Below, piece by piece: positions 4,732 through 50,013 of a stretch of DNA of 64,000 nucleotides (its first letter is position 1; each line of letters begins with the position of its first letter). Source of the DNA: a virus. Lineage: Duplodnaviria > Heunggongvirae > Uroviricota > Caudoviricetes. The stretch is from IMG/VR virus record IMGVR_UViG_2541047680_000004. The stretch is one strand, 5' to 3'. The translations under genes were made by a program, and so were the position numbers. Below the pieces are notes generated by a model, which was not told the DNA's origin, did not search any database, and worked only from the letters and a program-made list of their open reading frames with translations.

Positions 4732-5874
4732 TTACAGGTCTGCAAACTGGCTTAGAGAAGCCTTATCCACGGTAGAATCGATCTGACCTACCAGATATGT
4801 GCTTTGCTCTGCCTCTTGTGGTGCAATTTGCAGTGTGTCGGTTAACAACCACTTGTTCATCCAGACCAGCGGATCTGTGGTAACTTCTGGAAATAAAGCC
4901 TTCAGGCCAAGACGATTCATAGCCAGATTGGTGCGGTATTTTACATAGGTCTTCAGAATATCCGCGTTTAAACCAATCATCGAACCGTCTTTGAAGAGAT
5001 AGTCTGCCCAGTTCATTTCTTGTTCGGCGACTGATTTCATGGTGTCGTAAATGACGTTTTCTTCATCAGCAGCAATCTCTTTCCACAATAAACCTTCGCG
5101 ACCGGTACGCATGAAGCGGATCATGCGTTCAGTTCCTTCGCAATGCAGAGCTTCATCACGGGCAATAAAGCGCATAATTTTGGTGTTGCCCTCAAGCAAC
5201 TTCCGTTCGCCAAAGGCAAACGTACATGCAAAACTTACATAGAAACGGATCGCCTCAAGCGCATTAATGGACACCAACGTGCGGAAAAGCTGACGGTGCA
5301 AAGGGTATGGCTCCCAGCCATATTCATTTACGTACAGACGTTCAAACTCTTTCTCACCTAACGACTGGCGCTCGCAGGTCATCCCATAAAGCCTGTCATA
5401 TTCAGCAGAGATACTGATCGCTCGGTTGATGATTTCTTCATCCGTAACAATACCGTTAAAAACAATGCTCGGATCGTCCACCATGCCACGAATAATGTGG
5501 GTGTAGCTGCGGCTATGGATAGTCTCAGAGAAAGACCATGTTTCAACCCACGTTTCCAGTTCAGGAATAGAGATAAGCGGCAGCAGCGTTGCATTTGGGC
5601 TACGTCCCTGAACTGAATCGAGTAACGTTTGATAACGGAGATTGCTCAGAAAAATGTGACGTTCGTGGTCCCGCAGCTTCGTGTTGAAGTCGATACGATC
5701 GCTCGAAATATCAACTTCTTCCGGCCGCCAGAAGAAAGACAATTGACGTTCAATCAACTTTTCAAAATCACGGTATTTTTGCTGATCGTAACGTGCCACG
5801 TTGACAGATTGTCCGAGGAACATAGGCTCTTTGGTTGCATCATTAGCACCCAAACGGAACGTTGAATATGACAT
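4732..5874 (-). CDS. nrdB: ribonucleotide reductase small (beta) subunit
   Basis: [14 protein letters not shown] and EALHCEG iron-ligand/tyrosyl-radical region motifs; 380 aa; adjacent to nrdA. Confidence 0.9.
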
Positions 5875-5978
5875 GTGTTTTCCTTTTGCTTATTGATGTG
5901 TTTAAACAAGTTGTTATCTTATTTGTTTAAACAAGGTTTACAAATCAAAGAGAAGGTGGGGATATCCCCCACCATATG

Positions 5979-8294: not shown

Positions 8295-8311
8295 GTATCA
8301 CCAAATAAAGA

Positions 8312-8333
8312 GGGCCACTAAATATAGTGGCCC
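8312..8333 (-). terminator. terminator-like hairpin between resolvase gene and nrdA
   Basis: gggccacta-aata-tagtggccc 9-bp stem; downstream of the 8368..8937 gene on the minus strand. Confidence 0.45.
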
Positions 8334-8367
8334 ATGTTAATAGATAAGCACTTACCTATCAACGAGA

Positions 8368-12941: not shown

Positions 12942-13232
12942 ATCTTAAGCTTGCTCGAGAGGTGAGCAACCAAGACAGCACGGCACAGAAGAACATCAAC
13001 AGGCATAGTATTACAAAATAAATAGGTAAGTGAATACCTACCAAAATTGTTGAATGGATTGCTTACAAGGCGGCTAGAGTTTCATTGAAGTGCTTAGATG
13101 TATATGGTAGGCAAAAGTCTCATCGTTACATATGAATGAACTATCTCATGGGTCATGTATCATTTGATATTTTTATTATCAACAATTACTGTATAAGAGG
13201 AATTTTCCAAATTGAAAAAGGATTGATTATCA

Positions 13233-14490: not shown

Positions 14491-14593
14491 GTATGCTACC
14501 AGCGGTAATTGATAGTCTGTCAACGGTTCGCCGTATGCTGCCAACTGTTTTTGGTATGCTGCCAGCGGCAAATCAAGTATGCTGTCAGCGGTT
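14491..14593 (+). repeat. iteron cluster I (4 direct copies of a 16-bp repeat, consensus RTATGCTRYCAGCGGT)
   Basis: Copies at about 14491, 14533 (degenerate), 14554 and 14578; core GCTGNCAGC is itself palindromic. Confidence 0.8.
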
Positions 14594-14612
14594 GAATGAC
14601 AAAGGTGTCCAC

Positions 14613-15707
14613 ATGTCCACAAAAAATAAAAAAGGTAAAAATAACAAAGAAGTAGAAGATAATCTCGACAACTTTGAAGAAGGTTCCCTTGAATTGTACA
14701 CAGGGGAACTTGTCCCTAATAGCAACAATACAGTCCAACCAATTGCGTTGATGCGGCTGGGGTTGTTCGTGCCCACGCTCAAGGGGACAAAATACAGCAA
14801 GCGTAACAAGCCAAATGAGATCGATGCTTCAAAGGAGCTTGTTCAGCTCGAAGTAGCCCGTTCTGAAGGTTATTCCGATATCAAGATAACCGGTCCTCGT
14901 CTCGACATGGATCATGATTTCAAAACGTGGGTGGGCGTTGTGCGTTCGCTGGCAGAATACGGCGAACCTAACGGTCGTGTCGAGTTAAGCATCACGAAAT
15001 TTGCGAAGTTTTGTGGCTATCCATCGTCACAGATCCGCAAAACACTCCGCGACCGGCTTACAAACAGTCTTTTGAAGATCATGCGTACAACTCTGTCTTT
15101 TCAGAGAACGTATGAAGAAAAGAACGTCGACGGCTCTAACAAGATCTCGCTTCTGATGGTGCACCTCATCAATAGCGTGGACTACAACGAGCAGAAAGAT
15201 ACGGTGGTGTTCTATGCAGAACCGAAGCTGGCCGAACTATATCGCTTTGACCATAAGGTTCTTTTGCAGTTAAAGGTTATCAATAAGCTACCACGCAAAG
15301 AAACAGCACAGGCTCTGTACACCTTCATCGAAAGTCTTCCAACCAAGCCTGCGCCGGTATCGCTTGCTCGATTACGTGCGCGACTCAATTTGAGTAGCAG
15401 GAATGTCAGCTCGCAGAATCAGACTATACGTAACGGCTTAAAAGCTCTCCAAGATTTGGGCTATCTCGAATACAGCGAGATTAAGCGAGGGCGGTCGATC
15501 TATATCCAGATTCACAGCCGCAATCCAAAACTCAAAGTCGCACCGCCAAAACCTGAAGACATCGAACCCAAAAAACCAGATGAGAAAGCTGGGGAAATTG
15601 ATGCCAAACAGAACATTATCAACAAGATAACCGAACTTTCGCAGAATTTGACGCCTGAAAATATCAAGATGATTGAGATCCTTTCCAATAGTCTCAAACT
15701 GCTTTGA
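14613..15707 (+). CDS. putative iteron-associated DNA-binding / replication-initiator-like protein
   Basis: Plus-strand ORF (ATG at 14613; the ORF-track start 14493 lies inside the iterons) flanked on both sides by the 16-bp direct repeats; basic N-terminus; family not confirmed. Confidence 0.4.
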   Translation: MSTKNKKGKNNKEVEDNLDNFEEGSLELYTGELVPNSNNTVQPIALMRLGLFVPTLKGTKYSKRNKPNEIDASKELVQLEVARSEGYSDIKITGPRLDMDHDFKTWVGVVRSLAEYGEPNGRVELSITKFAKFCGYPSSQIRKTLRDRLTNSLLKIMRTTLSFQRTYEEKNVDGSNKISLLMVHLINSVDYNEQKDTVVFYAEPKLAELYRFDHKVLLQLKVINKLPRKETAQALYTFIESLPTKPAPVSLARLRARLNLSSRNVSSQNQTIRNGLKALQDLGYLEYSEIKRGRSIYIQIHSRNPKLKVAPPKPEDIEPKKPDEKAGEIDAKQNIINKITELSQNLTPENIKMIEILSNSLKLL

Positions 15708-15824
15708 TATGCTGTCAGCGGTGAAATGTATGCTATCAGCGGCTATTTTTCTGAAAAGTATGCTGTGAACGGTTAAAGATATGCTACCAGCGGTATAGTG
15801 AGATAAACGTATGCTGTGAGCGGT
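15708..15824 (+). repeat. iteron cluster II (5 direct copies, 21/30-bp spacing)
   Basis: Copies at about 15708, 15728, 15758, 15779 and 15809, same orientation as cluster I. Confidence 0.8.
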
Positions 15825-15984
15825 AAATCATCTATCACCACTCAATGCTCTGGCATACCTCCCCAGTGGTTACTAACCTCGAAGAGTGCATTCCATATAG
15901 GTTTGCGCTCACTAACATTCTATTGCCGTTGCGCTGATTGCTTGTAGTGAAAGGCATTTATTGCCTGCTGCTCCCTGATAGAAC

Positions 15985-16239
15985 GTATGCTGTCAGCGGT
16001 GTTTTATTGAGGAATTTTTGTTTGGATATGCTATCAGCGGTAATTAATGGTATATGTCAGACCTTCGTATGCTGCCAGCGGTAATTTTGTTCTGGTTATA
16101 ACCATACCGGTACACATTATTCATGCAATGTCTTAAGTATGCTGTCAGCGGTAAAAAATCGAGTAAAGTATGCTGTGAGCGGTGAGATAAACTCTCGATA
16201 TGCTATCAGCGGTAATTGATTGTGTATGCTGTCAGCGGT
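15985..16239 (+). repeat. iteron cluster III (7 direct copies)
   Basis: Copies at about 15985, 16026, 16067, 16137, 16168, 16198 and 16224, spaced 26 to 70 bp. Confidence 0.8.
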
Positions 16240-16255
16240 GACGACTATGAAATAT

Positions 16256-16277
16256 GACTGCGGCACGTGCCGCAGTC
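16256..16277 (-). terminator. perfect 22-bp palindrome, terminator-like
   Basis: gactgcggcac/gtgccgcagtc; directly downstream of the minus-strand gene ending at 16287. Confidence 0.45.
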
Positions 16278-16286
16278 AGTTTGCAT

Positions 16287-16499
16287 TTAGTGTATTTTCT
16301 TTAACAGACCCCAAAGTGTTCCGGCTTTTGTAGTCAGTTTTCCTGTTTCTGGATCGTACATACGCCATTCACGCCGCTGGTGGACGATATACCCATCTTC
16401 ACGTTCCAGACGCTCAAGAATGCCAGGCTGCTTGAAACCCTTAGCACGCCAGTAGCCGCTTGTTTTCTCGATTTCCAGACCTGCCAGTGTTAATGCCAT
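16287..16499 (-). CDS. hypothetical protein
   Basis: 70-aa ORF, start coupled to the stop of the upstream gene. Confidence 0.35.
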   Translation of the reverse strand: MALTLAGLEIEKTSGYWRAKGFKQPGILERLEREDGYIVHQRREWRMYDPETGKLTTKAGTLWGLLKKIH

Positions 16500-16834
16500 T
16501 ATCCAACCTCCTTGCAGTCATCGAAAAGGTAGCTTTGCTGAGAAGCGTGAACGCCATAGAAGCCCTTGTATTTGTTGTATACGAAGTGGTCTTCTCCGAC
16601 GCCGGTTAATTTGCCATTACGGTTTGTGAGATATGGGGATGACAATACTCGATCGTCACGCACTACATAGAACTGGTCGCCGCTGTCTACGACCATCGCG
16701 CCATATGGTGCTTTTATGACGTCGGTAAAAGCGCCATTCTTAATGTCGGCTACAGACATTTCACACTGATAAACAGTGGTGTCGGCCACAACGATCGAAG
16801 AAAGGAACAACAAAGCGAATGGGATGGCCTTCAT
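16499..16834 (-). CDS. secreted hypothetical protein (signal peptide)
   Basis: N-terminal MKAIPFALLFLSSIVVA looks like a Sec signal peptide. Confidence 0.45.
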   Translation of the reverse strand: MKAIPFALLFLSSIVVADTTVYQCEMSVADIKNGAFTDVIKAPYGAMVVDSGDQFYVVRDDRVLSSPYLTNRNGKLTGVGEDHFVYNKYKGFYGVHASQQSYLFDDCKEVG

Positions 16835-17010
16835 GCTGCCACCTCTTTGATTACATCAAATGCTGAATTAAATACGAGCACGATAGCCAAAGCGTTTATG
16901 ACTACTTCGTTCACCGGGGAAAATACTTTACGAATGACACCAGTGAAAATGCAGTCGATGACAAAAGCTATTGACACGATGAGTAACAAGTATTCAATAA
17001 AAATCTTCAT
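16831..17010 (-). CDS. small hydrophobic membrane protein (below ORF-track size cutoff)
   Basis: Manual translation gives a 57-aa hydrophobic peptide (MKIFIEYLLLIVSIAFVIDCIF ...); its TGA overlaps the ATG of the 16499..16834 gene. Confidence 0.3.
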   Translation of the reverse strand: MKIFIEYLLLIVSIAFVIDCIFTGVIRKVFSPVNEVVINALAIVLVFNSAFDVIKEVAA

Positions 17011-17049
17011 GATAGGTAGATACTAACTTATATAAATTTTACTGTAAAC

Positions 17050-17325
17050 TCACTCAAAAGTGCTGATGCTTAAAATACGCTCAAGATGTGCGGCATCTTC
17101 ATCACTGATTTGTTGAGTCTCTTCTACGTACCAACAGTTGCCGTTATGCCAACAAACACCATCATCATCAACCATCACTGAATCAGCGTCATGACCTGTA
17201 TATTCAACGAGAATGTGCTGGATCAGCGCGTCAGTTTCTTCGTCGTTAAGGCCATCGGCTTTGACCATAAAAAGCGGAAACACGTCATAGACAGTGCTGG
17301 TAACGATTCGAACTAAAACTCTCAT
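17050..17325 (-). CDS. hypothetical acidic protein
   Basis: 91-aa ORF preceded by the conserved translation-initiation sequence (finding at 12942-12975). Confidence 0.4.
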   Translation of the reverse strand: MRVLVRIVTSTVYDVFPLFMVKADGLNDEETDALIQHILVEYTGHDADSVMVDDDGVCWHNGNCWYVEETQQISDEDAAHLERILSISTFE

Positions 17326-17380
17326 GTGTTTTTCCTTTTGTGGTTAGTGTTTACTTATTTTGTTAGTTATGAATAGGCGA

Positions 17381-17806
17381 TCAATCTTCTTGTTTAGGGA
17401 AAAACTGTTCAATAACTCTGTCAACGGCTGTGTCTATATGGAGTAGATGCCACACAACCATATCTTTGCTTCCCATGCCTTGTGTGAATATCACGTCATA
17501 CTTACGCCATGCGCAGTGGAACCAATATGCTGAGTCATCAATTGGTAAATCCTCTCCCGCCTCTTTGAAGTATTTCAGCAGCATTGCCTGCTCTGCCGTT
17601 GGCGTTGGACCTATTTCCTGAGCGTACATACGGATGAATCGCTGCCAGTCTGTCTCGTCGGGGGTTGGATCTGGTGGGGTCATTTCTGCGATAGCGTTTC
17701 GTAGCTGATGCGCCCAATCAGGTTCAGGAAAGCCTTTTGCTACTTCATCATCAATAACATCCAGAGCCACGTTTGCGGCATCGTAGAGTTTCTTAATAGC
17801 TGCCAT
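17381..17806 (-). CDS. hypothetical protein
   Basis: 141-aa ORF; palindromic motif B immediately upstream. Confidence 0.4.
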   Translation of the reverse strand: MAAIKKLYDAANVALDVIDDEVAKGFPEPDWAHQLRNAIAEMTPPDPTPDETDWQRFIRMYAQEIGPTPTAEQAMLLKYFKEAGEDLPIDDSAYWFHCAWRKYDVIFTQGMGSKDMVVWHLLHIDTAVDRVIEQFFPKQED

Positions 17807-17856
17807 GTTTTCTTATCCTTTTAAACAAATTGTTTTCTTAATAAGATAATTGCGAT

Positions 17857-17890
17857 AAAAAAGGCGTCCAACTGGACGCCTGAACTTTTT
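17857..17890 (-). terminator. rho-independent terminator (bidirectional hairpin)
   Basis: ggcgtcc-aact-ggacgcc stem-loop with A6 upstream and T5 downstream on the plus strand. Confidence 0.6.
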
Positions 17891-17897
17891 AGGGGAG

Positions 17898-18728
17898 TTA
17901 TTTCACTGTAATGAAAGGAGTGTTAGCCCCTTGAGTCATGTACTGCGGTAACTGGCCATTCCATTTATTGATGGCTTCCAGTTCCATAACGTTCGGGTTT
18001 TGACGCAGAGCTTCACCGCGCAGACGAATGGCGTCTGCTTCTGCTTGCGCACGAGCACGGATAGCATCAGCTTCACCATTAGCCTGTTCACGTAGCATAT
18101 TCGCCTCAGCTTTACGTTGTTCAACTTCCTGCTGACGTTGCAGAGTACGCTGGTTAGCCGTTACTTTGGCGTTAATAGATTCAATGACAGTTTTTGGGTA
18201 ATCAGGCTTTCCAACCCATGACAGGCTCAGTACCTCAATACCAACCGGAGACATCTCTTTCTGAATATCTTTCAGTGCGTTGTCCAGCAATTGTGCCTTA
18301 CCACCGTCGATAAATGAGTCAGTGGTCATACGGCTGGCCAAACGGTTTAGAGAGTCGGCAATTTTCTGACGCAGATCTGATTCGGTGATATCGTCTACGC
18401 CTTTGCGATAGGTCTGGAACACCGTCGTTACCTTGTCACGATTAACCAGATACGCAACGCCAATTTTGTGACCAATAGCAGTACCGTCACTCATCTGGAA
18501 TGTGAACGGCTCGTCGTAGGTCTTCATTTGTTTGAAGGTCGGGAATACGTAAAGTTCGGTGTTAAGACCTGTCCATTGGCGACCAACGCCAACCACTTCA
18601 CCAATCCCTTTGTCTTCACCTAATTTGTTTACTTTGATGCCAACGTATCCAGGCTCCACGCGATCGCAGCCAGTAAGACCCATTGTGCAAATAGCCGCCA
18701 GAGCAACTGCAAGTAAACCTTTCTTCAT
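17898..18728 (-). CDS. SPFH/band-7 (stomatin/prohibitin-like) lipoprotein
   Basis: Lipobox LTGC after signal peptide; central band-7-like region; C-terminal Ala/Glu/Arg/Gln-rich coiled coil typical of HflK/C-like proteins. Confidence 0.65.
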   Translation of the reverse strand: MKKGLLAVALAAICTMGLTGCDRVEPGYVGIKVNKLGEDKGIGEVVGVGRQWTGLNTELYVFPTFKQMKTYDEPFTFQMSDGTAIGHKIGVAYLVNRDKVTTVFQTYRKGVDDITESDLRQKIADSLNRLASRMTTDSFIDGGKAQLLDNALKDIQKEMSPVGIEVLSLSWVGKPDYPKTVIESINAKVTANQRTLQRQQEVEQRKAEANMLREQANGEADAIRARAQAEADAIRLRGEALRQNPNVMELEAINKWNGQLPQYMTQGANTPFITVK

Positions 18729-18731
18729 TAC

Positions 18732-18932
18732 TTATTTCCCCTTTGCTTTGATTAATGAGTTGATAAACTTACGACCAGCAATAAGACCGATTACAGGAGC
18801 ACCAAAACCAACGATAACTCCAAACATGACGGCTAAATCACTCTTGGTAGAAATCAGCGACGGAACCAGTAAACCGTAGATGAGAGCCACTGAAAGGCCT
18901 GTGGCTACTGCCAATAGATAGATTTTGAGCAT
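18732..18932 (-). CDS. small membrane protein (possible NfeD-like partner of the SPFH protein)
   Basis: 66-aa ORF with two hydrophobic helices, ends 4 nt before the SPFH gene start. Confidence 0.45.
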   Translation of the reverse strand: MLKIYLLAVATGLSVALIYGLLVPSLISTKSDLAVMFGVIVGFGAPVIGLIAGRKFINSLIKAKGK

Positions 18933-18994
18933 GTGTTTTCCTATGTGGTTGTTATGCGAAAATAATAAGTAAGCACTTATATATTTTCAAGAGA

Positions 18995-19020
18995 TAAAAA
19001 AGGCGTCCTGTGGACGCCTT
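18995..19020 (-). terminator. rho-independent terminator
   Basis: ggcgtcc-tgt-ggacgcc hairpin followed on the minus strand by a T-run; downstream of the recA-like gene. Confidence 0.6.
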
Positions 19021-19024
19021 GTGT

Positions 19025-20098
19025 TTACTCTTCTACTGACTCGGTGGGGTTGTCTTTTGCTCTTCGGTCGTCGATTGCCTGCAAAGCCGCAATGATTTCA
19101 GCCAGTGGCTTCTCCCGATACATCTCGACGATCTGCGATTTGGTGTATTTCTTGTCACCAATTTCAACTCGCCCGCTGGCGTTCTTTGGCAGGTATCCTT
19201 CTTCCAGCATGTACTCGACGAGCGATTCGATAACGTCGAGGCCACGAGTAGGATCGAAGTAGAATTTCCAGGTGCATTTGCCATACGGTGGTGCAACTTT
19301 GTTTTTGATGCATTCTGCGCCTACGTCCTGGCCGATCTTCTCTTTACCATCCTTCATCACCGATGCACCAAGACGGATACGTACAGAAGCGTAGAACTTC
19401 GGTGAATCTCCACCTGGCGACGTAGTAGGGTCGCCAAACATTACACCGATTTTTGTGCGAACCTGATTCAAGAAGATGATGCAGGCGTTGTATTTGCGTG
19501 CCCACAAAGCCAGAGTAGGGAAGTTCGCACTTGTCGCACGAGCCAGTGCCGTATTGTCGTTCATGTTTAGCTGATCTTTGTCTTTGGCAGTGCCTTCAGC
19601 CATCTTTTCGAACTTCTCGGCTTTGGTGTTCGGAACCATAGACGCAAGTGAGTCAGCCACGATACAGATAGGTGCTGATTCAGGGATAAGCTCTTCATCA
19701 CGTACCAATTTAAGTATTGTGCCGATCAACTCTACAGAGTCTTCGAAGGTGTCAGGCTGCTTGTATACCCACTGACCGTCATCCTCATCTGCGTTCAGGC
19801 CATTGGCTACAGCCAGGCCAACGTCAAAACTGTTTTCATGATCGAGGAATACCGCCAGACCATCTTGTTTTTGAGCGGAGATCATCGCTGCTGTCGCAAG
19901 GAACGTTTTCCCTGCACTTGGAGGACCGAATACTTCGACGATACGACCACATGGGAAGCCGCCATCGTAACGACCGGAAATAGCTTTGTTTAACGGTGGA
20001 AAGCCTGTATCAATCCAATGAGTTACTTTCTGAATTTCGTCGTTGCTACCGATTTTCTTTTTCAGAGCAAGTGCCAGTGCGGATTTTCCTTTTGCCAT
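19025..20098 (-). CDS. RecA-like recombinase
   Basis: GRIVEVFGPPSAGKTFLA (Walker A), ICIVADSLASM (Walker B region) and FLNQVRTKIGVMFGDPTTSPGG match the RecA core closely; 357 aa. Confidence 0.8.
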   Translation of the reverse strand: MAKGKSALALALKKKIGSNDEIQKVTHWIDTGFPPLNKAISGRYDGGFPCGRIVEVFGPPSAGKTFLATAAMISAQKQDGLAVFLDHENSFDVGLAVANGLNADEDDGQWVYKQPDTFEDSVELIGTILKLVRDEELIPESAPICIVADSLASMVPNTKAEKFEKMAEGTAKDKDQLNMNDNTALARATSANFPTLALWARKYNACIIFLNQVRTKIGVMFGDPTTSPGGDSPKFYASVRIRLGASVMKDGKEKIGQDVGAECIKNKVAPPYGKCTWKFYFDPTRGLDVIESLVEYMLEEGYLPKNASGRVEIGDKKYTKSQIVEMYREKPLAEIIAALQAIDDRRAKDNPTESVEE

Positions 20099-20100
20099 GA

Positions 20101-20373
20101 TCAGGCTCCTTTTGTTTCGTTGATTCGTTTTAAAGCGGCGGATTCGTCGAATACAATCGCATCGTGATTAAGGAGTCTGGATACACGAGCGAGGATTTTT
20201 ACGACCTGCTCGCTGACTAATCCAAACTCGCGATCTGTCGCTTTCATTCCGGCAGCGCCCAGAATTGACGGCAGTGCGATGACAGCGTACTCACCGTGAT
20301 AAAAGACAATCTCTTTTGCCAGTTGGGTGGGGGTGGTTGTAGCGCCATTAATAATCGATTTAAGCATTAGCAA
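20101..20373 (-). CDS. hypothetical protein
   Basis: 90-aa ORF between recombinase and flap endonuclease genes. Confidence 0.35.
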   Translation of the reverse strand: MLMLKSIINGATTTPTQLAKEIVFYHGEYAVIALPSILGAAGMKATDREFGLVSEQVVKILARVSRLLNHDAIVFDESAALKRINETKGA

Positions 20374-21362
20374 TACCTTTCGAATGGAAGAACAAACACT
20401 TCAAGGTCTTCAAGGAACGAACGGAAATTCAGCTCGTAGCACAGTTGCTCGAATGCTTTCACGTCACGATTGCCTTTGATTGTTTCGATTTCGGTAGGCG
20501 GAAACTTCGTCTCAATCAGGTTCATTAGCGTGATGTTTCTCTTGAACGCTTCGAGCATTCGACAGCCTGTTTTCTCGTTGAAGGCATTCTTCGCTAGTTT
20601 GTTGAAGGCGGTCTTATGGCGTCCTTTGTCAACCACGATTGAGCCGTCGTTGATGCCGCGTACCATCGTTGCGACACTTCCCCATTCATGCAGCAGCTCT
20701 TTCGCACCGCCAGCACCAATGCCACCAACACCGCTAATGTTGTCCGATTTATCGCCTTGTAATGCTTTTGCTTCCAAAAATGCGCGAGGAGTAGCGAATC
20801 CTGTCAGCTCCGCAAATTGCTCAAAATTAACCTGCTTGTTTTTGGCGTCTTCGCGCAGGCTTACCCAGCTTACGTTTTCGCGAACTAACTGAAGCCAGTC
20901 GCTATCGCCTGTTAACAGATAGATGTGTTCAACGGTTGGCTGCGCTGCCATGCGGGATACCAGCAGCCCGGCCAGATCATCCGCTTCTGCATCTTTTGCA
21001 ATGAGTTGGGTAACTCCAAGCGCGGTCATCATTTTGAGGATGTATGGCTTCTGGATAGCAAAGCCTTCCTTCATCTTTTTCATATCAGGATCGTCGTCGC
21101 GATTTGCTTTGTAGTCCGGGTAAAAGTCGCGACGCTTGTCACTAAATCCATCCCAAAGAATCATAGGTCGGGCATGGAGGATGGAGGCATAACGACGGAC
21201 GTTCTTAACAAAGCCGAAAGCAGCCTGTACTTCCATTTCGCCGTTGTGCAATTTGTCAGATTGTTGGTGGTAATAACCCAGGCTATTGCCATCTACGAAG
21301 AGATAATTCACCGGTACATTCCTTCCAAAAAGTAAGGCGTCCGTAGACGCCTTACTGGTCAC
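20367..21362 (-). CDS. flap endonuclease / 5'-3' exonuclease
   Basis: VDGNSLGYY N-terminus, GDKSDNISGVGGIGAGGA helix-hairpin-helix region; 331 aa. Confidence 0.85.
   Translation of the reverse strand: MTSKASTDALLFGRNVPVNYLFVDGNSLGYYHQQSDKLHNGEMEVQAAFGFVKNVRRYASILHARPMILWDGFSDKRRDFYPDYKANRDDDPDMKKMKEGFAIQKPYILKMMTALGVTQLIAKDAEADDLAGLLVSRMAAQPTVEHIYLLTGDSDWLQLVRENVSWVSLREDAKNKQVNFEQFAELTGFATPRAFLEAKALQGDKSDNISGVGGIGAGGAKELLHEWGSVATMVRGINDGSIVVDKGRHKTAFNKLAKNAFNEKTGCRMLEAFKRNITLMNLIETKFPPTEIETIKGNRDVKAFEQLCYELNFRSFLEDLEVFVLPFERYC
21331..21356 (-). terminator. terminator-like hairpin
   Basis: 11-bp stem agtaaggcgtc/gacgccttact with cgta loop, T-run on the minus strand; overlaps the annotated 5' end of the flap endonuclease ORF. 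Confidence 0.45.
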
Positions 21363-22400: not shown

Positions 22401-22517
22401 GTGTTTCTCCTTGTTGTGATTTGGCCGATGGCGCTATGCGCGTTGGGCTTTCGTTCATTCGTGGCTCTTTCGAGCTGTTAAATGATAGATCAGTACTTAC
22501 TTATTATCTATCAAAAA

Positions 22518-28012: not shown

Positions 28013-28107
28013 GCGTTTTTCCTTTGTTCTCTAATGAGCGTTCAACTTCTTATATAAATATATCATTATCTATCGTAAGTGGTTACTTATCGTTGAGGCT
28101 GTTTTGT

Positions 28108-30216
28108 TCACTTTAAAATGATACGAGATAGTTCAGTAACTACAGATGAACCAAGACTATCAACGCTCGTTACCAGGGCATGATTTGAGTAAAATCTTTC
28201 CGGTGCGTCAGTCATGATGCCAATTGCCATCAAATCAATATCAGTCTGCGTTTCAATTTGCTTCGCAACTGAACGCAAATGAGCGTCAAAACCTCTCCCA
28301 ACAGCCCACGGCGCGCCATCACTCAGAACAAGCATGATCTTCCTGTCCTCCAAGCGACCGGAAAATAACGATGCAAGGCTGGCTATGCTTTCACCATCCA
28401 CGTTATTAAGAAGTGGGAATGTGTAGCCTACGCACCCCATACGTGAGCGAACTTCGCGAGAATTTACCTTTTCATTCCAATTTTTGATGATAGGTAGCAT
28501 TAAAGATTCAAAGCGAGAGAACTCATACTTGACAGCCTTAAGTTCTCCTGCCGCCATATGACTACCAAATGTAGTGAAGCCGGTGATAATGTTGGGAACA
28601 TTTATTCGATCAAGGGCATCTGCGATGGTATATGCACTTGCAAGAGCCAATTGTATCGTTATACCACTCATTGAACCTGATAAATCAATCACTTGTTGAA
28701 CACAGGCGTTAACGGCTTTAGATTCTTCTTTTTTACGAAACACGCGATCATCATTCATTGCTAATCTGTAGATACTAGAACCATGAATGCGCCCCCGACG
28801 CTGGCCCGGTATAAACTGAACTCTGTTTCTGCTTGCTATTGCTCGCTCCAGGTCTTTTGCCAGCGTCGACGAAACACCTGACGAAAGATGCTTTTCAATA
28901 TATTTGTCGAAGAGCTGGTTGCCTTCAGGAACGATGCGATAGCGGCTGATTGGATATCCTCCTAAATCAATATCGGAGAATGTTTTAATAAGCCGTTTGA
29001 TATGGGCTTCTGCCTGATCAATCGAGCCGATGAAGTCGTATGAGCGATTGTATGGCCTGTATTCGCTTTTCGAGCTTTCTGTTAACTCGCTTTTAATCGT
29101 TTCGGATAGAGCATCTTCTGTCATGCCTCCGACTTCATCTTCTATGCTATCCAGCTCCTCTAAAGCCTCTTCCAGACTCATTTTTGACGGAGTTGGAATA
29201 TCTGAAGAGCCGTCTTCTGTCGTTTTTCTTTTTTCGTGGTCAGCGATAAATGATTCTGACACCGCGTTATCAGAAGCATCAGAATCTGATACCTCTTTAT
29301 CATTTTCTGTATCATCGAATATTGTTTCTGATGATTCAGAATTATCTGAATCATCACTGTCGTTATTATCATGTTTGTGCTTACTGTGTGATTCTGATTT
29401 GATAGATTTGTGATTATCTAACGCTGAGGGTGTCTCATGATCTTCGTTGTCTTCATTGTTTTCTCCAGAGGCATCCGTCTGGTCAGCGTCTGAAGGATCG
29501 GAAGTTTTTCCCGGAGCTGACTCCTTACCTTTGCTTTCACTTTCAGTGTCTTTGAGGATCTTAGCTATGGTCGCAGCCACCTTTACACAATCCTCGGTGC
29601 AAGACATGTTACGCACGGCCACATCGATACCATGTTCTTTTAATAATGAAATTGGTTTCTCAATGACAGGCCAATATTCATCCATGAAATCTACGAACGG
29701 TGCTTGGCCATCCCAGGCTCTTACAACCGGACAGAGAAAGAAGTTTAGAAAAAGCGCGCGCTGATCTTTGCCACAATAAGCAATAGCCTCTGAAGCCTTT
29801 GGTTTAAAGACTTTTTCGATTATAAGGCGCTGAGTTGCCATCAGATTACGTCTTGTTCCGTTAAAGACCTGACCCATTTTTCGCTCGATGAACACGTCTT
29901 CTAAGGCATTCCATAGCGACCAGGAAGGAACGCGTCCTTTTTCTCTCATTTTGTTGGACACACGAATATCGGTAAACAAAATGTGAGCAACCTCATGATC
30001 GAGAAATCCGCGCACAGCATTCATCAATGCCGGTGTTGCGTTATCCGGGATTGATGGGATGTTTACGAGAATTGGCTCTCCATCATCGTTATAGCGTACA
30101 TAAGCGTCGTCCCCTCGTTCTGCAACAGGGATGTTTTTACCTGAAAGGAGAGCGACTACTCGTTTTACACTGTCACGGAAGTCCTGAACCTCTTTGATAG
30201 AACGTTTTTTAGACAT
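28108..30216 (-). CDS. CobT-like von Willebrand factor A domain protein
   Basis: Central highly acidic Ser/Asp/Glu-rich low-complexity region and C-terminal vWA domain with MIDAS motif DLSGSMSG. Confidence 0.65.
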   Translation of the reverse strand: MSKKRSIKEVQDFRDSVKRVVALLSGKNIPVAERGDDAYVRYNDDGEPILVNIPSIPDNATPALMNAVRGFLDHEVAHILFTDIRVSNKMREKGRVPSWSLWNALEDVFIERKMGQVFNGTRRNLMATQRLIIEKVFKPKASEAIAYCGKDQRALFLNFFLCPVVRAWDGQAPFVDFMDEYWPVIEKPISLLKEHGIDVAVRNMSCTEDCVKVAATIAKILKDTESESKGKESAPGKTSDPSDADQTDASGENNEDNEDHETPSALDNHKSIKSESHSKHKHDNNDSDDSDNSESSETIFDDTENDKEVSDSDASDNAVSESFIADHEKRKTTEDGSSDIPTPSKMSLEEALEELDSIEDEVGGMTEDALSETIKSELTESSKSEYRPYNRSYDFIGSIDQAEAHIKRLIKTFSDIDLGGYPISRYRIVPEGNQLFDKYIEKHLSSGVSSTLAKDLERAIASRNRVQFIPGQRRGRIHGSSIYRLAMNDDRVFRKKEESKAVNACVQQVIDLSGSMSGITIQLALASAYTIADALDRINVPNIITGFTTFGSHMAAGELKAVKYEFSRFESLMLPIIKNWNEKVNSREVRSRMGCVGYTFPLLNNVDGESIASLASLFSGRLEDRKIMLVLSDGAPWAVGRGFDAHLRSVAKQIETQTDIDLMAIGIMTDAPERFYSNHALVTSVDSLGSSVVTELSRIILK

Positions 30217-30314
30217 GGCTAATCCTTTGTTATGAAAACAAATTATTTACTAGTGTGTTTAATGTAGCACTGCGCGAACAGGGAACTAAGCCATTCGCGC
30301 AGGGAGAAGAGGGG

Positions 30315-30527: not shown

Positions 30528-30778
30528 TCAATCAATCCATTCTAACTTATACTATGGTAAGGAATACTACTAAAATTTGTATCAATACTGAATACATTCA
30601 TATCATATGCAAGTTAATTTTCTTACCTATTTTGGGCTAGTTTTTCTCCGTGCAATGGCCTTTAACCGGTCTTTTAAGTGCCTATCGAAAAAAATGATAA
30701 TAGCTTTACAACCCTAACCTTTGATGTAATATCGGTAAGCACTTACCAGAGAGAATTGAACGCGCAAAGGTTGTAACC

Positions 30779-31165
30779 ATGTCTGATAACAAGATTGAAT
30801 TTATAGAAAGTCGCTACGCTGCTTTTATCGCAGGGTTGATTGAATCCTCACCTATGAGCCAGTCCCAGATAGCCAAAACAATTGGGTATAAAAACGCCAA
30901 CAACCTTTCTTTAATTAAAAGCGGCAAAATTCCTTTGCCTATCGATAAGGTTCGTCCGCTGGCGCTGGCACTGGGTATTGAGCCAAGTCGTCTTATGATG
31001 ATGGTGCTGGAAGAACGCCAACCCGAACTCGCAGCATTTTTATACAAAGAAGGCACTGCTCCTCTTAACGAGGACGAAAAACAGGTTCTTGCTGCATATA
31101 ACGAGCGATTCGGTAAAGAGAAAGGCGCATCACAAAAGGTTGTTGAGGCCATAAAGTCTCTATGA
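30779..31165 (+). CDS. helix-turn-helix transcriptional regulator (XRE/Cro-CI-like)
   Basis: SQSQIAKTIGYKNANNLSLIKSGK HTH motif; plus-strand gene with palindromic motif A (ggtaagcacttacc) about 40 nt upstream. Confidence 0.6.
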   Translation: MSDNKIEFIESRYAAFIAGLIESSPMSQSQIAKTIGYKNANNLSLIKSGKIPLPIDKVRPLALALGIEPSRLMMMVLEERQPELAAFLYKEGTAPLNEDEKQVLAAYNERFGKEKGASQKVVEAIKSL

Positions 31166-32893: not shown

Positions 32894-34156
32894 ATGCCTT
32901 TTTTAATTTTCATTATTATACTACTGCTCACCGTGATTTTTTGGGATTGGGTTGTTTTAAATGGTCAAATTGTTGGAACATTGGCTACAGCATTTGCTTT
33001 TATAGCAACAGCATGGAATGCCTACGAAGCGAGAAAAAGTGCAAAAGCAGCTTTTTCAGCCCTTCAATTAACAACAGAATCATTGTTCGAAATGCGAAAG
33101 AGTGCATTTAAACAATGGTTTGATTCCTTATTAAATCAACATGATGAGCTATGTCTTCTTGCAAAACAAATTATCGATAAACGCAAAATTAATTTAAACA
33201 GCGATGAGTTACATAGACTATATTACCCATTGGTAAAACAGCATGAGGTAATACAGTATGTGAAGCATATTATTAATATTTTTGAGTATGTGGATAGTTC
33301 ATTTTATATTGATGGGGAATGTCTAAAGGAAAAAAGAGCGTATGTGTCACAATTAATTTTCAAAATCCCACCTCAGATGAAGTTGATCATTGCTATCTTT
33401 GGATTAAAGATCGATTATTGTGAACATATTAATTCGGGAAAACTGTGTTGTTTATTAAATAAATATGATTTTTTCAATGATGAAATATTTTTTGATGATG
33501 CTTATTCAGATATGCCTTATCTGGATGCATTCATAAACCTTAGATTCAACAAAATATTCAAATCTCGAATGATAAATTATTTTGATAATATCATTAAAAG
33601 TTATTATGTTCCATCGGACGTTAAAAGGGACTGGATGTTTCGAGACCCAAAGCTCGTACCGTCGGTTCTTATGAATTATAAAACTCCTTGTTCTCCTATA
33701 ATTAATGATTACTTTGAGAAGTTGCCTTTACATGTAAGAAACTACTTTGAGGAACTACTTAAAACCGCGAATGATAGAGTTACTCATTTTGACGTTTACA
33801 TCCCACGCCTTATTGGTTGTTCAATCGTGCAACATTACGAAGATGTGCCTTCCGAAAAAAACAGGTTAAATGACAGGAATGATGTAATAGCTATGGCTGA
33901 AGATTACATCGAGAAAAGAAAATCTAATCAACTAGATTACATACTTGAAGATATATACTTCAAGAGTGACGAAGATATAATCCCAGGCCACCATTTGATT
34001 GTGGCATTTGATGACTATGAATTTAAATTATCACTCATTAAGATAAATGAGAATAAAGATAGCGATAATCTTTTAAATCGAATTTATACTGAATCCAGTA
34101 GCATGGTTAAAGAATATAAGCGCGAAATATTAAAACTGGGCGACTATGTAAAGTAA
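32894..34156 (+). CDS. AT-rich membrane-anchored hypothetical protein (candidate accessory/defence-type gene)
   Basis: 420-aa ORF on the opposite strand to its neighbours; two N-terminal hydrophobic helices; sequence visibly more AT-rich than flanking genes; own terminator downstream. Confidence 0.5.
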   Translation: MPFLIFIIILLLTVIFWDWVVLNGQIVGTLATAFAFIATAWNAYEARKSAKAAFSALQLTTESLFEMRKSAFKQWFDSLLNQHDELCLLAKQIIDKRKINLNSDELHRLYYPLVKQHEVIQYVKHIINIFEYVDSSFYIDGECLKEKRAYVSQLIFKIPPQMKLIIAIFGLKIDYCEHINSGKLCCLLNKYDFFNDEIFFDDAYSDMPYLDAFINLRFNKIFKSRMINYFDNIIKSYYVPSDVKRDWMFRDPKLVPSVLMNYKTPCSPIINDYFEKLPLHVRNYFEELLKTANDRVTHFDVYIPRLIGCSIVQHYEDVPSEKNRLNDRNDVIAMAEDYIEKRKSNQLDYILEDIYFKSDEDIIPGHHLIVAFDDYEFKLSLIKINENKDSDNLLNRIYTESSSMVKEYKREILKLGDYVK

Positions 34157-34755: not shown

Positions 34756-34831
34756 TGGTGCCGGTTAACGGACTTGAACCGCTGGCCATTCGCTTACAAA
34801 ACGACTGCTCTACCAACTGAGCTAAACCGGC
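34756..34831 (-). tRNA. tRNA-Thr (anticodon UGU)
   Basis: Reverse complement gccggtttagctcagttggtagagc ... ttUGUaa ... ggttcaagtcc ... aaccggcacca; one mismatch at the top of the anticodon stem. Confidence 0.55.
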
Positions 34832-34835
34832 AATT

Positions 34836-34922
34836 TGGTGGGGAGTGATGGAGTCGAACCACCCGAGTCGCCATGACAGTAGATTTACAGTCTACACCGC
34901 TACCTCTACGGACTAACTCCCC
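34836..34922 (-). tRNA. tRNA-Tyr (anticodon GUA), long variable arm
   Basis: Reverse complement ggggagt ... actGUAaatc ... ggttcgactcc ... actccccacca. Confidence 0.6.
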
Positions 34923-34927
34923 TAAAT

Positions 34928-35002
34928 TGGCGATGGTGGGTGGATTCGAACCACCGACCAGTTGGTTAACAGCCAACTGCTCTACCGCTGAGCTACACCA
35001 TC
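34928..35002 (-). tRNA. tRNA-Asn (anticodon GUU)
   Basis: Reverse complement gatggtgtagctcagcggtagagc ... ctGUUaa ... ggttcgaatcc ... caccatcgcca. Confidence 0.65.
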
Positions 35003-38381: not shown

Positions 38382-38448
38382 AATTACCGCCAGAAATAAT
38401 CTTGTGCTTACCTATCATTATTTGCGTAAAAAACGACACACAGAGAGC

Positions 38449-39225: not shown

Positions 39226-39350
39226 ACCAACTCCTAGCTAACAGATGAAAGTATTCTTACAAAAAACTAAGTATGTATCTACTTATCATTTTAGGCGCAA
39301 TAGTTCCCTATACGAAGATGCCGGGCTTATAGTCTGCCCGGCATTCACCA

Positions 39351-39764: not shown

Positions 39765-39996
39765 GTTGGCTTCCCTTTATTTATATTTATCGCAGGTATT
39801 AGTTAATCAAAACACGAGCAGTGCCACAATAATTAAATGGCGTACTATTTCTTATGGTTATTAGTTTCCCAGTAACTTTACCGACCATAAACTAAATCAA
39901 CAAAGCTGACATATTAACTAAATTTAAGTACCCTTTTTCGCACACTTGACGCTTGCCGCGTCTAAACTGTTCATCCTATATCAACAGAAAAAAAAC

Positions 39997-41142
39997 ATGA
40001 AATACATAAAATCTTCATCGTTGCTGGCATTAACTTTGCTTTTTAACTCTGGATTCGTTAACGCAGACAATAAACAAACGCTGATAGAAGCCGCTACCGC
40101 AGGGGATACCGCAGCACAAAGTGAGTTAGGTACAAATTATTTTGATGGTGTCAATGGTTTTGATAAGGATGTAGTTGAGGCCAAGAAGTGGATTGATCTA
40201 GCTGCAGAAAAGGGAGATAAAGTAGCATATTATGCACTTGGAGTTATGTACACATTTGGCGAGGGTGTAGATAAAGACCTAAATAAAGCTGTTGAGTACT
40301 ACAAACTTGCGGGGGATGCTCGTGAAGGTAGAGCCTACAACAATCTTGGTGCTATTTATCAAAAGGGGATGCTTGGTAAAGTAGATCATGCACTCGCCAT
40401 TAAATACTTCAAACTAGCCTCTGATGCCGGGTATGTTAAAGCAACTTCAGTTCTTGGGGCGTATTACCAATATGGTAAAGGCGTTAAAAAGAATTATAAA
40501 AAGGCTTTTACTTATTACAAAAAGGCGGCAGACCAAGGCAGTTCAGAAGCTATGATAGGATTAGGAATACTATACGATGATGGGTTAGGCGTTAAACGCA
40601 ATGATGCAGAAGCAGTTAAGTGGTATAAAAAGGCAGCGGAACTTGGAAACGCCGACGCCATAACCAATCTTGGCATTATGTATGAGAATGGGGAAGGTGT
40701 AAAAAAGGACTATAAAAAAGCAGCCGACCTTTATCAGACTGCTTGCGATAAAGGAGAAAAAAGAGGCTGCGATTACATTGCAGAACTGAAAGAAAGCGGC
40801 AAATATCGAGCGCCGGCTTCCAAAGCCAAAACAAAATCCGCCACCCAGCGACTTATTGCTAAATCCATTGATAAGGGCGTTAACGCTACATTTACCTGGC
40901 AGGGTGATGATGCTACCTTCACCGCTAATGATGGCAAAGTTGACTGCACCTTCCTGAAGGATTTTTCAGAGAAAGGAGGCAATCTGGCTACCTCGTTTGT
41001 TTGCACCGATAACGTTCAAATCATCCTGAAGCAATTCAGAGATACCAAGAATGCCTACCTCGCGGTAATGACTGACAACTTCAATACAGAAGTTAAATCA
41101 TTTTCGGTCAATGTGTATGTGACTAATACTGGTTCAAACTAG
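39997..41142 (+). CDS. secreted Sel1-like repeat (TPR-like) protein
   Basis: Signal peptide MKYIKSSSLLALTLLFNSGFVNA followed by at least 7 Sel1-type repeats (A..YY.LG.MY..G.GV.KD...A..WY.KAA pattern); plus strand, opposite to neighbours. Confidence 0.7.
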   Translation: MKYIKSSSLLALTLLFNSGFVNADNKQTLIEAATAGDTAAQSELGTNYFDGVNGFDKDVVEAKKWIDLAAEKGDKVAYYALGVMYTFGEGVDKDLNKAVEYYKLAGDAREGRAYNNLGAIYQKGMLGKVDHALAIKYFKLASDAGYVKATSVLGAYYQYGKGVKKNYKKAFTYYKKAADQGSSEAMIGLGILYDDGLGVKRNDAEAVKWYKKAAELGNADAITNLGIMYENGEGVKKDYKKAADLYQTACDKGEKRGCDYIAELKESGKYRAPASKAKTKSATQRLIAKSIDKGVNATFTWQGDDATFTANDGKVDCTFLKDFSEKGGNLATSFVCTDNVQIILKQFRDTKNAYLAVMTDNFNTEVKSFSVNVYVTNTGSN

Positions 41143-42315
41143 TGCTGCAATGCCTTTCACCTTGCTTAAGAGTTCAAGCTGTCGTGAATAAGGTTTTGCG
41201 CAATAGTAGGCTTTGATAATCTGCCCCGGTGTCGCATCGCCGGGGTCGAGTCCTTCCTCGCCCAAACACGCAACTTTGACATTAAGACCAATACTTGTGA
41301 GTCGCCTGGCTGCGGCCATAGTGTTGCGTATAGCTTGCTTTTCACTATCCCACATCATGATCACATTACGTAATCCACGCGCCTTGAGCGTCAGGAACGC
41401 GCCCAGCTGATCTTCTGCATCCTGAGTGGTGTTGCCAGATAGATGCATCCCGAACGTTCCTATTGGTTCCACGTAATCACGTAATGTTTCTTCGTCAAAA
41501 ATAGCTCGTTTAACTCCCATAACATCGAACGCCCCCTCACAGACAACTACAGTCTGTTTGCCAACTGCATTATGGCCGTTGTAGAGAAACTTACCTGAAG
41601 CTGGAAGCTGCATAGGAAAGAGGTAGCGGCGGTCTGCTGTACCGGTAATGTCTCGTCCCTGAAATGTCTTCATTACCCCATCCAGATCGTAAACCGGTAT
41701 CAGTACTCGCATATCGAATATCTGTCCTTTTACCTGATCTGTATACGGATCTACATAAGCGTGCTTGCCTTCGACGCAGTATCGTAGGTCAAAATACTTT
41801 GCCATTTCAGGCGATATGTTTCGTTCAACCAGATAGTCTGGAAGACGGCCATCTATAGGAAGTTCGTAATGACGAGGGAGTGCAAGTGGTCCCTCTAACT
41901 CGACTGTGCTTGTAAGCACTATCTCTTCTTTCTTTGGTGCCCACCCCTGGGAAAGAAGAGCGTTCTGCACATATTCCTCGAACTGTCGTCGTGATTTACC
42001 GCTGTAGTACTTGAGGAAGACCAGCTTATTGAACTGAATCTCTTCGGGATGATCACCAGCGAAGCATTTGCCGACGCCACTGGTCAGATTGAAATATACC
42101 TTCCAGTTGGAGCTGCCGCATACCGGACACTCCTTGATATTCACTTCACGACCGCGAGCACTCACGCCTCCACGTCGATAAACGATACCTTCAGTGTCCA
42201 ACCATTGTTCAAAATCTAATTCGGTAATTAGCTCTTTCAGCTCGCTCACGATAATTCCACTTTTAACAGGCAATATTGTGACCAACCTAAATGTTGATAT
42301 AACATAAAGGCTCAT
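41134..42315 (-). CDS. DNA primase (zinc-ribbon + TOPRIM)
   Basis: CPVCGSSNW ... C zinc ribbon and TOPRIM VVVCEGAFDVMG; start placed at the Met preceded by the conserved RBS (ORF track extends to 42387). Confidence 0.7.
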   Translation of the reverse strand: MSLYVISTFRLVTILPVKSGIIVSELKELITELDFEQWLDTEGIVYRRGGVSARGREVNIKECPVCGSSNWKVYFNLTSGVGKCFAGDHPEEIQFNKLVFLKYYSGKSRRQFEEYVQNALLSQGWAPKKEEIVLTSTVELEGPLALPRHYELPIDGRLPDYLVERNISPEMAKYFDLRYCVEGKHAYVDPYTDQVKGQIFDMRVLIPVYDLDGVMKTFQGRDITGTADRRYLFPMQLPASGKFLYNGHNAVGKQTVVVCEGAFDVMGVKRAIFDEETLRDYVEPIGTFGMHLSGNTTQDAEDQLGAFLTLKARGLRNVIMMWDSEKQAIRNTMAAARRLTSIGLNVKVACLGEEGLDPGDATPGQIIKAYYCAKPYSRQLELLSKVKGIAALV

Positions 42316-42396
42316 GTGTTTTTCTTTTGTGGTTTGGCAAAAGAAAAGTTGTTTCACCAATGAATCAAGCGTGGAGGTGTTCTCCACGCTTATTTT

Positions 42397-43737: not shown

Positions 43738-43780
43738 GTGCTTTCCTTTGTTTTTTAAACAAATTGTTTTCTAGTATTAG

Positions 43781-49944: not shown

Positions 49945-50013
49945 GAAAAGTCAAATCGGGATGGCGGATTTATATCACATTTCACCCTTTTGTTGTAGGT
50001 GTGTGCTTACCTA

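Follow-up and report, generated by a model that had tools for sequence, protein, structure and literature searches.

Motif B, a 15–17-bp palindrome (AGAAAACAA-n-TTGTTT), occurs in the predicted promoters of five genes in a 64,000-nucleotide stretch of viral DNA (Caudoviricetes; IMG/VR record IMGVR_UViG_2541047680_000004; the whole stretch is hereafter the window), and is probably the operator of one dyad-specific repressor, dimeric or tetrameric, encoded by the element itself. Because bases 15000–21000 share 98–99% identity with Escherichia phage CMS-2020a, 97% with Cyrano (pLF82), and 78% with Salmonella phage SSU5, the window is assigned to an SSU5-like phage-plasmid of Escherichia coli, of which it represents a portion. 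Among SSU5-like phage-plasmids of the Enterobacteriaceae, the motif appears to define a regulon of approximately 18 promoters. Motif B is a genuine, conserved sequence whose placement fits a function.

Form and Occurrence of Motif B in the Window

Nearly all genes in the window lie on the minus strand, and motif B is therefore read on that strand, where its form in the direction of transcription is tAAGAAAACAAnTTGTTTaA (also written TAAGAAAACAAnTTGTTTAA). The 13-bp core AAACAAnTTGTTT has five matches with at most one mismatch (5904–5916, 17823–17835, 30236–30248, 43757–43769, and 46993–47005) against 0.55 expected, a number reached in none of 100 shuffles. The 20-nt extended form TAAGAAAACAANTTGTTTAA likewise has five matches with at most three mismatches, against 0.01 expected, and Markov simulation for the 15-mer AAAACAAnTTGTTTT gives three matches vs. 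0.07 expected with at most one mismatch, and five vs. 0.86 with at most two. All five sites at the two-mismatch threshold are intergenic, in a window of which 7% is non-coding, and they end 16, 19, 19, 29, and 35 nt before a minus-strand ATG. Matches with three or four mismatches fall nearly all within coding sequence, and are noise.

The first-pass annotation of this DNA, which named a genome-wide motif scan as a check, had described the palindrome at 15–45 nt upstream of four start codons: those of nrdB, the gene at 17806 (encoding a DUF7238 protein), the DnaB-like helicase gene, and parA. All four sites are present, the measured distances of 16–35 nt for the five sites lie inside that range, and the scan places the occurrence of the 20-nt form above chance. 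The list itself was incomplete, as a fifth, degenerate site precedes a cobT-like gene, and approximately 18 sites occur in a complete genome of this type. A second, overlapping copy reported before nrdB does not hold up: the arrangement there (TTGTTTAAACAA, ~5922–5935, in the −35/−10 spacer) is everted rather than AAACAA-n-TTGTTT, and it is not counted here because its AAACAA half is not conserved, reading AACCAA, CACCAA, or AGCACA in orthologues.

The half-sites form the dyad AAAACAA-n-TTGTTTT, in which positions −7 to −1 and +1 to +6 are identical in 13–16 of the 16 Cyrano sites and the central base is free. A position-frequency table gives the form AG-AAAACAA-n-TTGTTT-(A/T), with the AG at −9/−8 consistent on one side only. 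On the plus strand at the DUF7238 site, a consensus scan detects a promoter-like TAAACA-17-GATAAT (17822–17850), in which a palindrome arm stands as the −35 and which points away from the DUF7238 gene; this could reflect antisense transcription or chance.

Conservation and Genome-Wide Distribution

Homologues of the helicase, DUF7238, cobT, and nrdB loci were taken from viral contigs and their upstream regions compared. Of 80 related helicase loci, 79 have the site unchanged and one is truncated; the upstream regions comprise 38 distinct sequences in three clades, between which the 25 nt upstream of the motif are unalignable, while all clades keep (C/T)TAGAAAACAAnTTGTTTAA with T, A, or C as the central base. 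At the DUF7238 gene, 40 of 53 related loci have the site, which is kept whenever this gene is the first of its transcription unit. For nrdB, TTGnnn-16-TAAGAT followed by AACAAyTTGTTT is kept in six diverged clades. The cobT site reads TAAATAATTTGTTTT in the window vs. a perfect AGAAAACAAATTGTTTTA at the orthologous position in Salmonella/Klebsiella-type relatives; the cobT element is therefore a 15-bp palindrome that has decayed in the window. Upstream of parA, only three blocks are kept in loci L268 and L271 (ParA-operon proteins 48–64% identical), namely the −35 (TTTACA or TTGTCA), the −10 TAGGCT after a 17-nt spacer, and CATAAGAAAACAnnTTGTTTTCA. At the helicase, nrdB, cobT, and parA loci alike, the palindrome is kept while its flanks and central base change, also in elements whose ParA-operon proteins share 31–64% identity.

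Three relatives were scanned at larger scale: the complete Cyrano genome, the Klebsiella plasmid NZ_CP097685 of the same family, and 100 of the 103 kb of the SSU5-like Providencia plasmid CP096299. Cyrano has 19 matches with at most two mismatches, ~18 of them intergenic, which lie at parA, the helicase gene, cobT, the DUF7238 gene, nrdB, a TerB/TciA-like gene, ~10 small early genes, and the terminase small-subunit gene (two sites). The original framing of the motif as linking nucleotide supply, helicase loading, and partition thus proves too narrow, given the sites at cobT, the small early genes, and the terminase operon. The Klebsiella plasmid has 18 matches, many of which are modules of a reverse site ~39 nt upstream of the start point and a forward site at ~+13, 51 bp apart. 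Tandem pairs 25 bp apart occur in Cyrano (OV696614, positions 56/81; locus L403) and in NZ_CP097685 (positions 33042/33067; locus L273), one of them before the terminase small-subunit gene and the other in the gap that splits a PolIII alpha gene in two. Of the intergenic 7-mers of Cyrano and NZ_CP097685, AAAACAA and GAAAACA rank near the top for enrichment in each genome. The scanned 100 kb of the Providencia plasmid contain no copy of motif B. Overall, the motif is seen in Escherichia, Salmonella, Klebsiella, and Cronobacter-type elements and is absent from Providencia and Xenorhabdus elements. No element with motif B was found to lack the Par pair, every apparent case being a truncated locus.

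Promoter Context and Expression in the Lysogen

The centre of each site lies downstream of the predicted −10 element (Table 1), by 6 nt for nrdB, 10 nt for the helicase, 15 nt for DUF7238, 19 nt for cobT, and 22 nt for parA. At nrdB, TAAGAT directly precedes AACAAyTTGTTT, such that the putative −10 and the left palindrome arm overlap. The −10 position of the helicase promoter reads TAGTAT or TACGAT in other clades, and at parA the distance from the −10 to the operator centre is a constant 22 nt (approximately +15). The intrinsic terminator upstream of the DUF7238 site means that this unit needs its own promoter within the 55 nt that hold the motif; for nrdB and DUF7238 together, the terminators upstream of the sites confine the promoter to the same 55–100 nt. 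Directly upstream of the cobT promoter, the window carries an inverted repeat (CTGCGCGAA...TTCGCGCAG, 30270–30303), in the place of which other clades have CTGTACGAACAG...CTGTTCGTACAG; it lacks a T-run and could thus be a binding site for a protein, or an attenuator, instead of a terminator.

Expression values were taken from published RNA-seq of the LF82 (Cyrano) lysogen, in which background is 9.8 (PMC9928086, supplementary file 2). Readings are 5.7 for DUF7238, 7.8 for cobT, 12.9 for nrdB, and 21 for the helicase gene, with 6–25 for the small early genes and 7 for terminase. The motif B genes are thus silent in the lysogen, except for the parA operon, which is moderately expressed (50, 89, and 55, the second-named value being that of the 119-aa gene next to parA).

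Table 1. Motif B sites of the window, the promoter elements predicted around them, and associated genes.
Feature	Position	Strand	Details
Motif B site before nrdB	5902–5921	−	TAAGATAACAACTTGTTTAA; 5′ end TAAGAT (5916–5921) = conserved, putative −10
nrdB −35	5938–5943	−	TTGTAA; 16-nt spacer to TAAGAT; from orthologue alignment by eye
Terminator-like hairpin	5955–5973	−	GGTGGGGGATATCCCCACC; after nrdA, upstream of nrdB promoter
nrdB	4732–5874	−	Ribonucleotide reductase small subunit
Motif B site before DUF7238 gene (focal site)	17821–17840	−	TAAGAAAACAATTTGTTTAA; centre 17829, 16 nt before ATG
Candidate DUF7238 −10	17844–17849	−	TATCTT; by eye, below consensus-scan threshold; operator centre 15 nt downstream
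Intrinsic terminator	17862–17881	−	AGGCGTCCAGTTGGACGCCT + T-run; ends upstream gene 17898–18728
DUF7238 gene	17381–17806	−	141 aa; first of small operon
Rest of DUF7238 operon	17050–17325, 16831–17010, 16499–16834, 16287–16499	−	
Motif B site before cobT-like gene	30231–30250		Gene strand GTAAATAATTTGTTTTCATA; fifth site, degenerate; centre 30242, 19 nt before ATG; absent from first-pass annotation
cobT extended −10-like element	30261–30269	−	TGcTACATT (TGaTAAATT in other clades); predicted; operator centre 19 nt downstream
cobT-like gene	28108–30216	−	CobT + CobT_C VWA domain, 702 aa
Motif B site before helicase gene	43755–43774	−	CTAGAAAACAATTTGTTTAA; centre 43763, 19 nt before ATG
Helicase promoter	−35 43795–43800; −10 43773–43778	−	TTGATC, 16-nt spacer, AATACT; predicted, 8/12 consensus matches
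DnaB-like replicative helicase gene	42397–43737	−	Followed by primase gene, 41134–42387
Motif B site before parA	46991–47010	−	TAAGAAAACAAGTTGTTTCA; centre 46999, 35 nt before ATG
parA promoter	−35 47044–47049; −10 47021–47026	−	Predicted; TTTACA, 17-nt spacer, TAGGCT
parA	46289–46957	−	Walker-type partition ATPase, 222 aa, without N-terminal DNA-binding domain (type Ib)
119-aa gene	45930–46289	−	Overlaps parA stop; candidate centromere-binding protein and candidate motif B reader

Proposed Repression and Alternative Explanations

The regulon of the proposed repressor would comprise nrdB, the DUF7238 operon, cobT, helicase-primase, and parA in the window, to which relatives would add ~10 small early genes and the terminase operon. 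The sites would lie over the −10/+1 (nrdB and helicase), at approximately +8 to +22 (DUF7238, cobT, and parA), or in the −35 region (in relatives), and from these positions a bound protein would keep RNA polymerase off the promoter or prevent its escape. Cooperative binding is probable at promoters flanked by two sites, which are 25 or 51 bp from each other. In the plasmid-prophage state, the regulon would be kept off by repressor present in the lysogen, and the parA operon would escape in part because it has the best −35/−10 and a single site at +15. One shared dyad site and co-regulation via one dimeric factor, as put forward in the first-pass annotation, are well supported by the non-random occurrence, the promoter-proximal placement, and the phylogenetic footprints of the motif.

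Certain points weigh against repression by such a factor. The predicted promoter hexamers match the consensus poorly (8 of 12 positions); they were picked out by eye as conserved blocks, and none is listed by the consensus scan. The one-sided AG extension at −9/−8 is not accounted for by a simple symmetric dimer. Furthermore, silence in the lysogen could also mean that the promoters need an activator absent in lysogens. Motif B would then mark a special promoter class or activator site, at which a phage-encoded activator or modified RNA polymerase turns on early or middle genes after induction. Three to five sites in relatives lie ~−39 from an extended −10 (TGnGAAAAT or GATAAT), which is the classic class II activator position, and the 5′ extension TAAGA(A/T) resembles a −10 hexamer and is the putative −10 at nrdB. 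Most sites, however, are at −2 to +22, where a protein would block rather than recruit, at the varying distances from the −10 given above for the window; the parA operon has the site yet is expressed in the lysogen, and recognizable sigma70-type hexamers are conserved beside the sites. Activation is an improbable account of motif B: it is possible for the −39 subclass, and misfits the majority of sites.

Also improbable is that motif B is the site of a host transcription factor of the Enterobacteriaceae that the phage-plasmid exploits. The motif is found in Escherichia, Salmonella, Klebsiella, and Cronobacter-type elements and not in those of Providencia and Xenorhabdus, and no phage protein could be assigned to it, a phyletic screen (below) having given no obvious DNA binder. 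Yet in L277, from Klebsiella, the motif is missing from a 19.6-kb stretch in which other Klebsiella elements have three sites, and a search of 185,000 genomes with the perfect 17-mer gave, among the matches listed, scattered chance ones in unrelated phyla, which are uninformative for a host-factor regulon. We know of no E. coli factor with a motif B site, and the consensus sequences of NrdR, LexA, KdgR, PhoP, IHF, and RcsAB do not fit. NrdR recognizes a pair of 16-bp boxes (acaCwAtATaTwgtgt) at nrd promoters; the sequence upstream of nrdB has no such box, and motif B is shared with non-nrd genes, such that an NrdR box is rejected.

An element acting in RNA, as a leader hairpin or as a translational operator just upstream of the Shine–Dalgarno sequence, possibly bound by an FljA/Hfq-like protein, is very hard to reconcile with the data. 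The distance to the start codon (16–35 nt) is steadier than that to the −10, and relatives with motif B encode an FljA-like protein with an Hfq-like segment that the Providencia element lacks. Against this, the predicted leader folds are weak (−2 to −5 kcal/mol, z-scores −1.8 to 0.1, no better than shuffles), and a Rfam search of the window returned nothing at the motif B sites and three tRNAs elsewhere; on these two grounds an RNA-level function is rejected. Moreover, the sites run in either direction and some precede the −10, hence fall outside the transcript, while dyad symmetry with a free central base would be meaningless for single-stranded RNA and is instead what a protein dimer on duplex DNA would call for. 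The weak folds, the Rfam result, the orientations, and the symmetry indicate recognition as double-stranded DNA. The FljA-like protein itself (“repressor of phase-1 flagellin,” Pfam E = 1e-80) is encoded by CYRAN_114 (Cyrano 100780–101301; locus L272 43781–44302, minus strand), and is likely a post-transcriptional regulator of the phage-plasmid, with the appearance of an RNA binder.

A Second Palindrome Family and the Helix-Turn-Helix Repressor

When all intergenic gaps of the window are listed, a different palindrome is seen, family A, of the form (G/A)TAAGT-N2-6-ACTTA(C/T) or GTAAG-N2-CTTAC. A perfect copy (GGTAAGCACTTACC, 30734–30747) lies 31 nt before a helix-turn-helix (HTH) gene (30779–31165), which is the homologue of the “putative repressor” CYRAN_45 of Cyrano. 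Further copies are in the gaps 8295–8367, 12942–13232, 18933–19024, 22401–22517, 28013–28107, 38382–38448, 39226–39350, 44531–44578, 49945–50013, 55477–55567, and 62410–62458. Family A precedes early, replication, and tail genes, and in relatives it supplies the word with the strongest intergenic enrichment, TAAGTAA being its enriched 7-mer.

The region between the HTH gene and a divergent 70-aa gene (30528–30778) has no motif B, and has the family A copy GGTAAGCACTTACC instead. The sequence of family A differs between clades, and that of motif B is constant. For these reasons family A, not motif B, is tentatively assigned to the HTH repressor, and its copies probably represent the operators of the master repressor. 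The HTH protein, which the first-pass annotation named for binding assays on motif B, is thus associated with the other palindrome family, and motif B as a master-repressor operator of the P1 C1 or lambda CI type is rejected on the same control region. The motif B regulon would be separate from that of family A (GTAAG-N2-CTTAC).

A Candidate Reader in the par Operon

The first-pass annotation suggested the Par proteins as possible regulators at motif B, and in that case the 119-aa protein encoded next to parA could be the reader, although this assignment is tentative. A ParG/omega-like protein of a type Ib partition system would then use the motif at once as par operator, as dispersed centromere-like sites, and as silencers of lytic genes. 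The gene layout, a small ParA (222 aa) without a DNA-binding domain followed by an overlapping small gene, is that of type Ib. Besides the −35 and −10, motif B is the sole conserved block upstream of parA, fixed at +15, and no iterated subsite array was found at the par locus, where 46958–47105 contain a single palindrome (two subsites) and no other repeats. The protein is also expressed in the lysogen, well above background, while the other motif B genes are silent. A putative reading strand (IKSRTMS) and helix (TRSDVIRAA) show no change among motif-B elements, even where overall identity falls to 31%. In L277, which has no motif B, the parA leader has TAAACAG-G-TAAACAG, a direct repeat of half-site-like units at a spacing of 8 bp. 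The 8-bp centre-to-centre distance between the two 7-bp arms of motif B suits two adjacent ribbon-helix-helix (RHH) dimers, as in the box spacing of MetJ and ParG. Omega of pSM19035, KorB of RK2, and SopB of N15 are precedents for a partition protein of this kind. In N15, the centromeres are four dispersed, single inverted repeats (PMC7205306).

The distribution of the motif argues the other way. The Providencia plasmid lacks it in 100 of 103 kb, and it is missing at parA in L275, L277, and L278; all four nevertheless encode ParA and a homologue of the 119-aa protein, in which the strand is near-identical (IKSRTVSMEDEY, ISPRTVSLEDEY, and IRSRTFSLEDEF). Presence of the motif does not follow the protein phylogeny, as L274 (31–36% identity) has it and L278 (40%) does not, and a single palindrome at the par locus contrasts with the iterated arrays typical of type Ib centromeres. 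Co-variation between motif and protein is uninformative because both the strand and the motif are invariant in the motif-B clades.

In its sequence, the protein combines a disordered, basic N-terminal tail with IKSRTMSLEDEY and FTRSDVIRAAI, a pattern weakly suggestive of RHH proteins. Alignment with hhalign to the RHH of NikR gives E = 7e-4 and 26% probability, in register; the NCBIfam model aCcr1 gives E = 2e-4, below its cut-off; and an AF2 monomer (pLDDT 65) has helices where RHH helices are expected. The protein has no Pfam match, no similarity to ParG or omega, and no structural match. Its gene is annotated in Cyrano as a “RelE/ParE putative toxin,” whereas the layout is instead that of a small centromere-binding protein. 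The family has 18 representatives among 1.8 billion proteins, and every contig looked up is an SSU5-like element.

Other candidate readers were sought by a phyletic screen for proteins that Cyrano (17.2–106.9 kb) shares with the Klebsiella plasmid (100 of ~112 kb) but not with the Providencia plasmid (100 of 103 kb). Most of the proteins retrieved are encoded by motif B target genes or have no known function, and none shows a DNA-binding signature.

A fuller version of the par assignment, which we consider doubtful, gives the 119-aa protein a dual role: bound to the ~18 dispersed palindromes, it would form a distributed centromere and, together with this, a further layer of immunity by keeping replication, early, and packaging genes silent. 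Once the element is induced, runaway replication would raise the number of sites and so titrate the autoregulated protein, thereby freeing the regulon.

Other Features of the Element

Next to the Rep3-type initiator gene (14493–15707, plus strand) are 11 iterons of ~22 nt each (CGTATGCTGTCAGCGGT) in two clusters (15706–15829 and 15984–16244), and by this arrangement the locus is recognized as the plasmid replication origin. Three tRNA genes in a row are identified by Rfam at 34759–35002 (minus strand); Cyrano has tRNA genes for Ser, Thr, and Asn at the corresponding place. Three plus-strand genes (39946–41142, 32894–34156, and 44796–45869) interrupt the minus-strand backbone and include one for a Sel1-repeat protein and two of unknown function. 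They are missing or replaced in close relatives, CMS-2020a and Cyrano covering ~70% of the region, and are probably cargo.

Comparison With Known Operator and Partition Systems

A close parallel in overall design is the C1 repressor of P1, which is likewise a plasmid-prophage: one repressor acts at many operators over ~100 kb, at replication genes (including ban, a DnaB analogue) and lytic promoters, and some promoters have two operators. The P1 operator, however, is asymmetric and 17 bp long (ATTGCTCTAATAAATTT) and bears no resemblance to motif B, and P1 operators flank c1, whereas the HTH control region has family A rather than motif B. RK2 resembles the SSU5-like elements in that a 13-bp palindromic operator of KorB/KorA, present ~12 times at variable promoter positions, coordinates replication, partition, and transfer, with a regulator that doubles as a partition protein. 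RK2 differs in that KorB is a ParB-family HTH protein with the site TTTAGCSGCTAAA, and in that RK2 is not a phage.

Omega of pSM19035 and ParG of TP228 are RHH centromere-binding proteins that are also transcriptional repressors. As proposed for the par operon described here, the gene of a small Walker-type ParA is followed in these systems by one for a small protein that binds DNA, and the parA promoter contains the site. Elsewhere on its plasmid, omega further represses copy-control and toxin–antitoxin promoters. The short subsites are 7–8 bp apart, direct or inverted. Both proteins, however, use arrays of 7–12 or more subsites, in contrast to one palindrome (two subsites) per locus here, and differ further in that motif B occurs at ~18 loci, including phage early and late genes, and that the motif is missing from some relatives that encode the protein. 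An iterated array and co-occurrence with the binding protein are two features that define a type Ib centromere, and the motif B system shows neither. The parH site of TP228 is dealt with in PMC3130281.

N15 is a phage-plasmid in which partition sites are single palindromes scattered among phage genes. It differs in having a type Ia system with a large ParB-family SopB that contains an HTH, a GC-rich 16-bp palindrome, and four sites vs. ~18 here. Ravin et al. in 2008 reportedly dealt with the N15 SopB sites and their effect on phage gene expression. As judged from sequence, the motif B system is a member of none of the P1 C1, RK2 KorA/KorB, omega, and N15 SopB systems.

Implications for SSU5-Like Phage-Plasmids

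A search of the literature gave no description of motif B, and a review of phage-plasmids from 2024 (PMC11652158) includes no regulatory circuit for the SSU5 group. Phage-plasmids of the SSU5/pHCM2/pSLy3 type are widespread in E. coli, Salmonella Typhi, and Klebsiella, with resistance genes as possible cargo. Taken with their lists of targets, the dispersed operator families A and B amount to a testable wiring diagram for these elements, in that they suggest which promoters belong to each regulator and how parA, for plasmid maintenance, may be coupled to the lytic functions of nucleotide supply, helicase-primase, and terminase. Motif B also gives a handle on the search for the regulator, as an oligonucleotide bait, and on predicting the cargo genes that are active in the carrier state. 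If the dual role of the 119-aa protein were true, the system would be a lytic switch that senses copy number.

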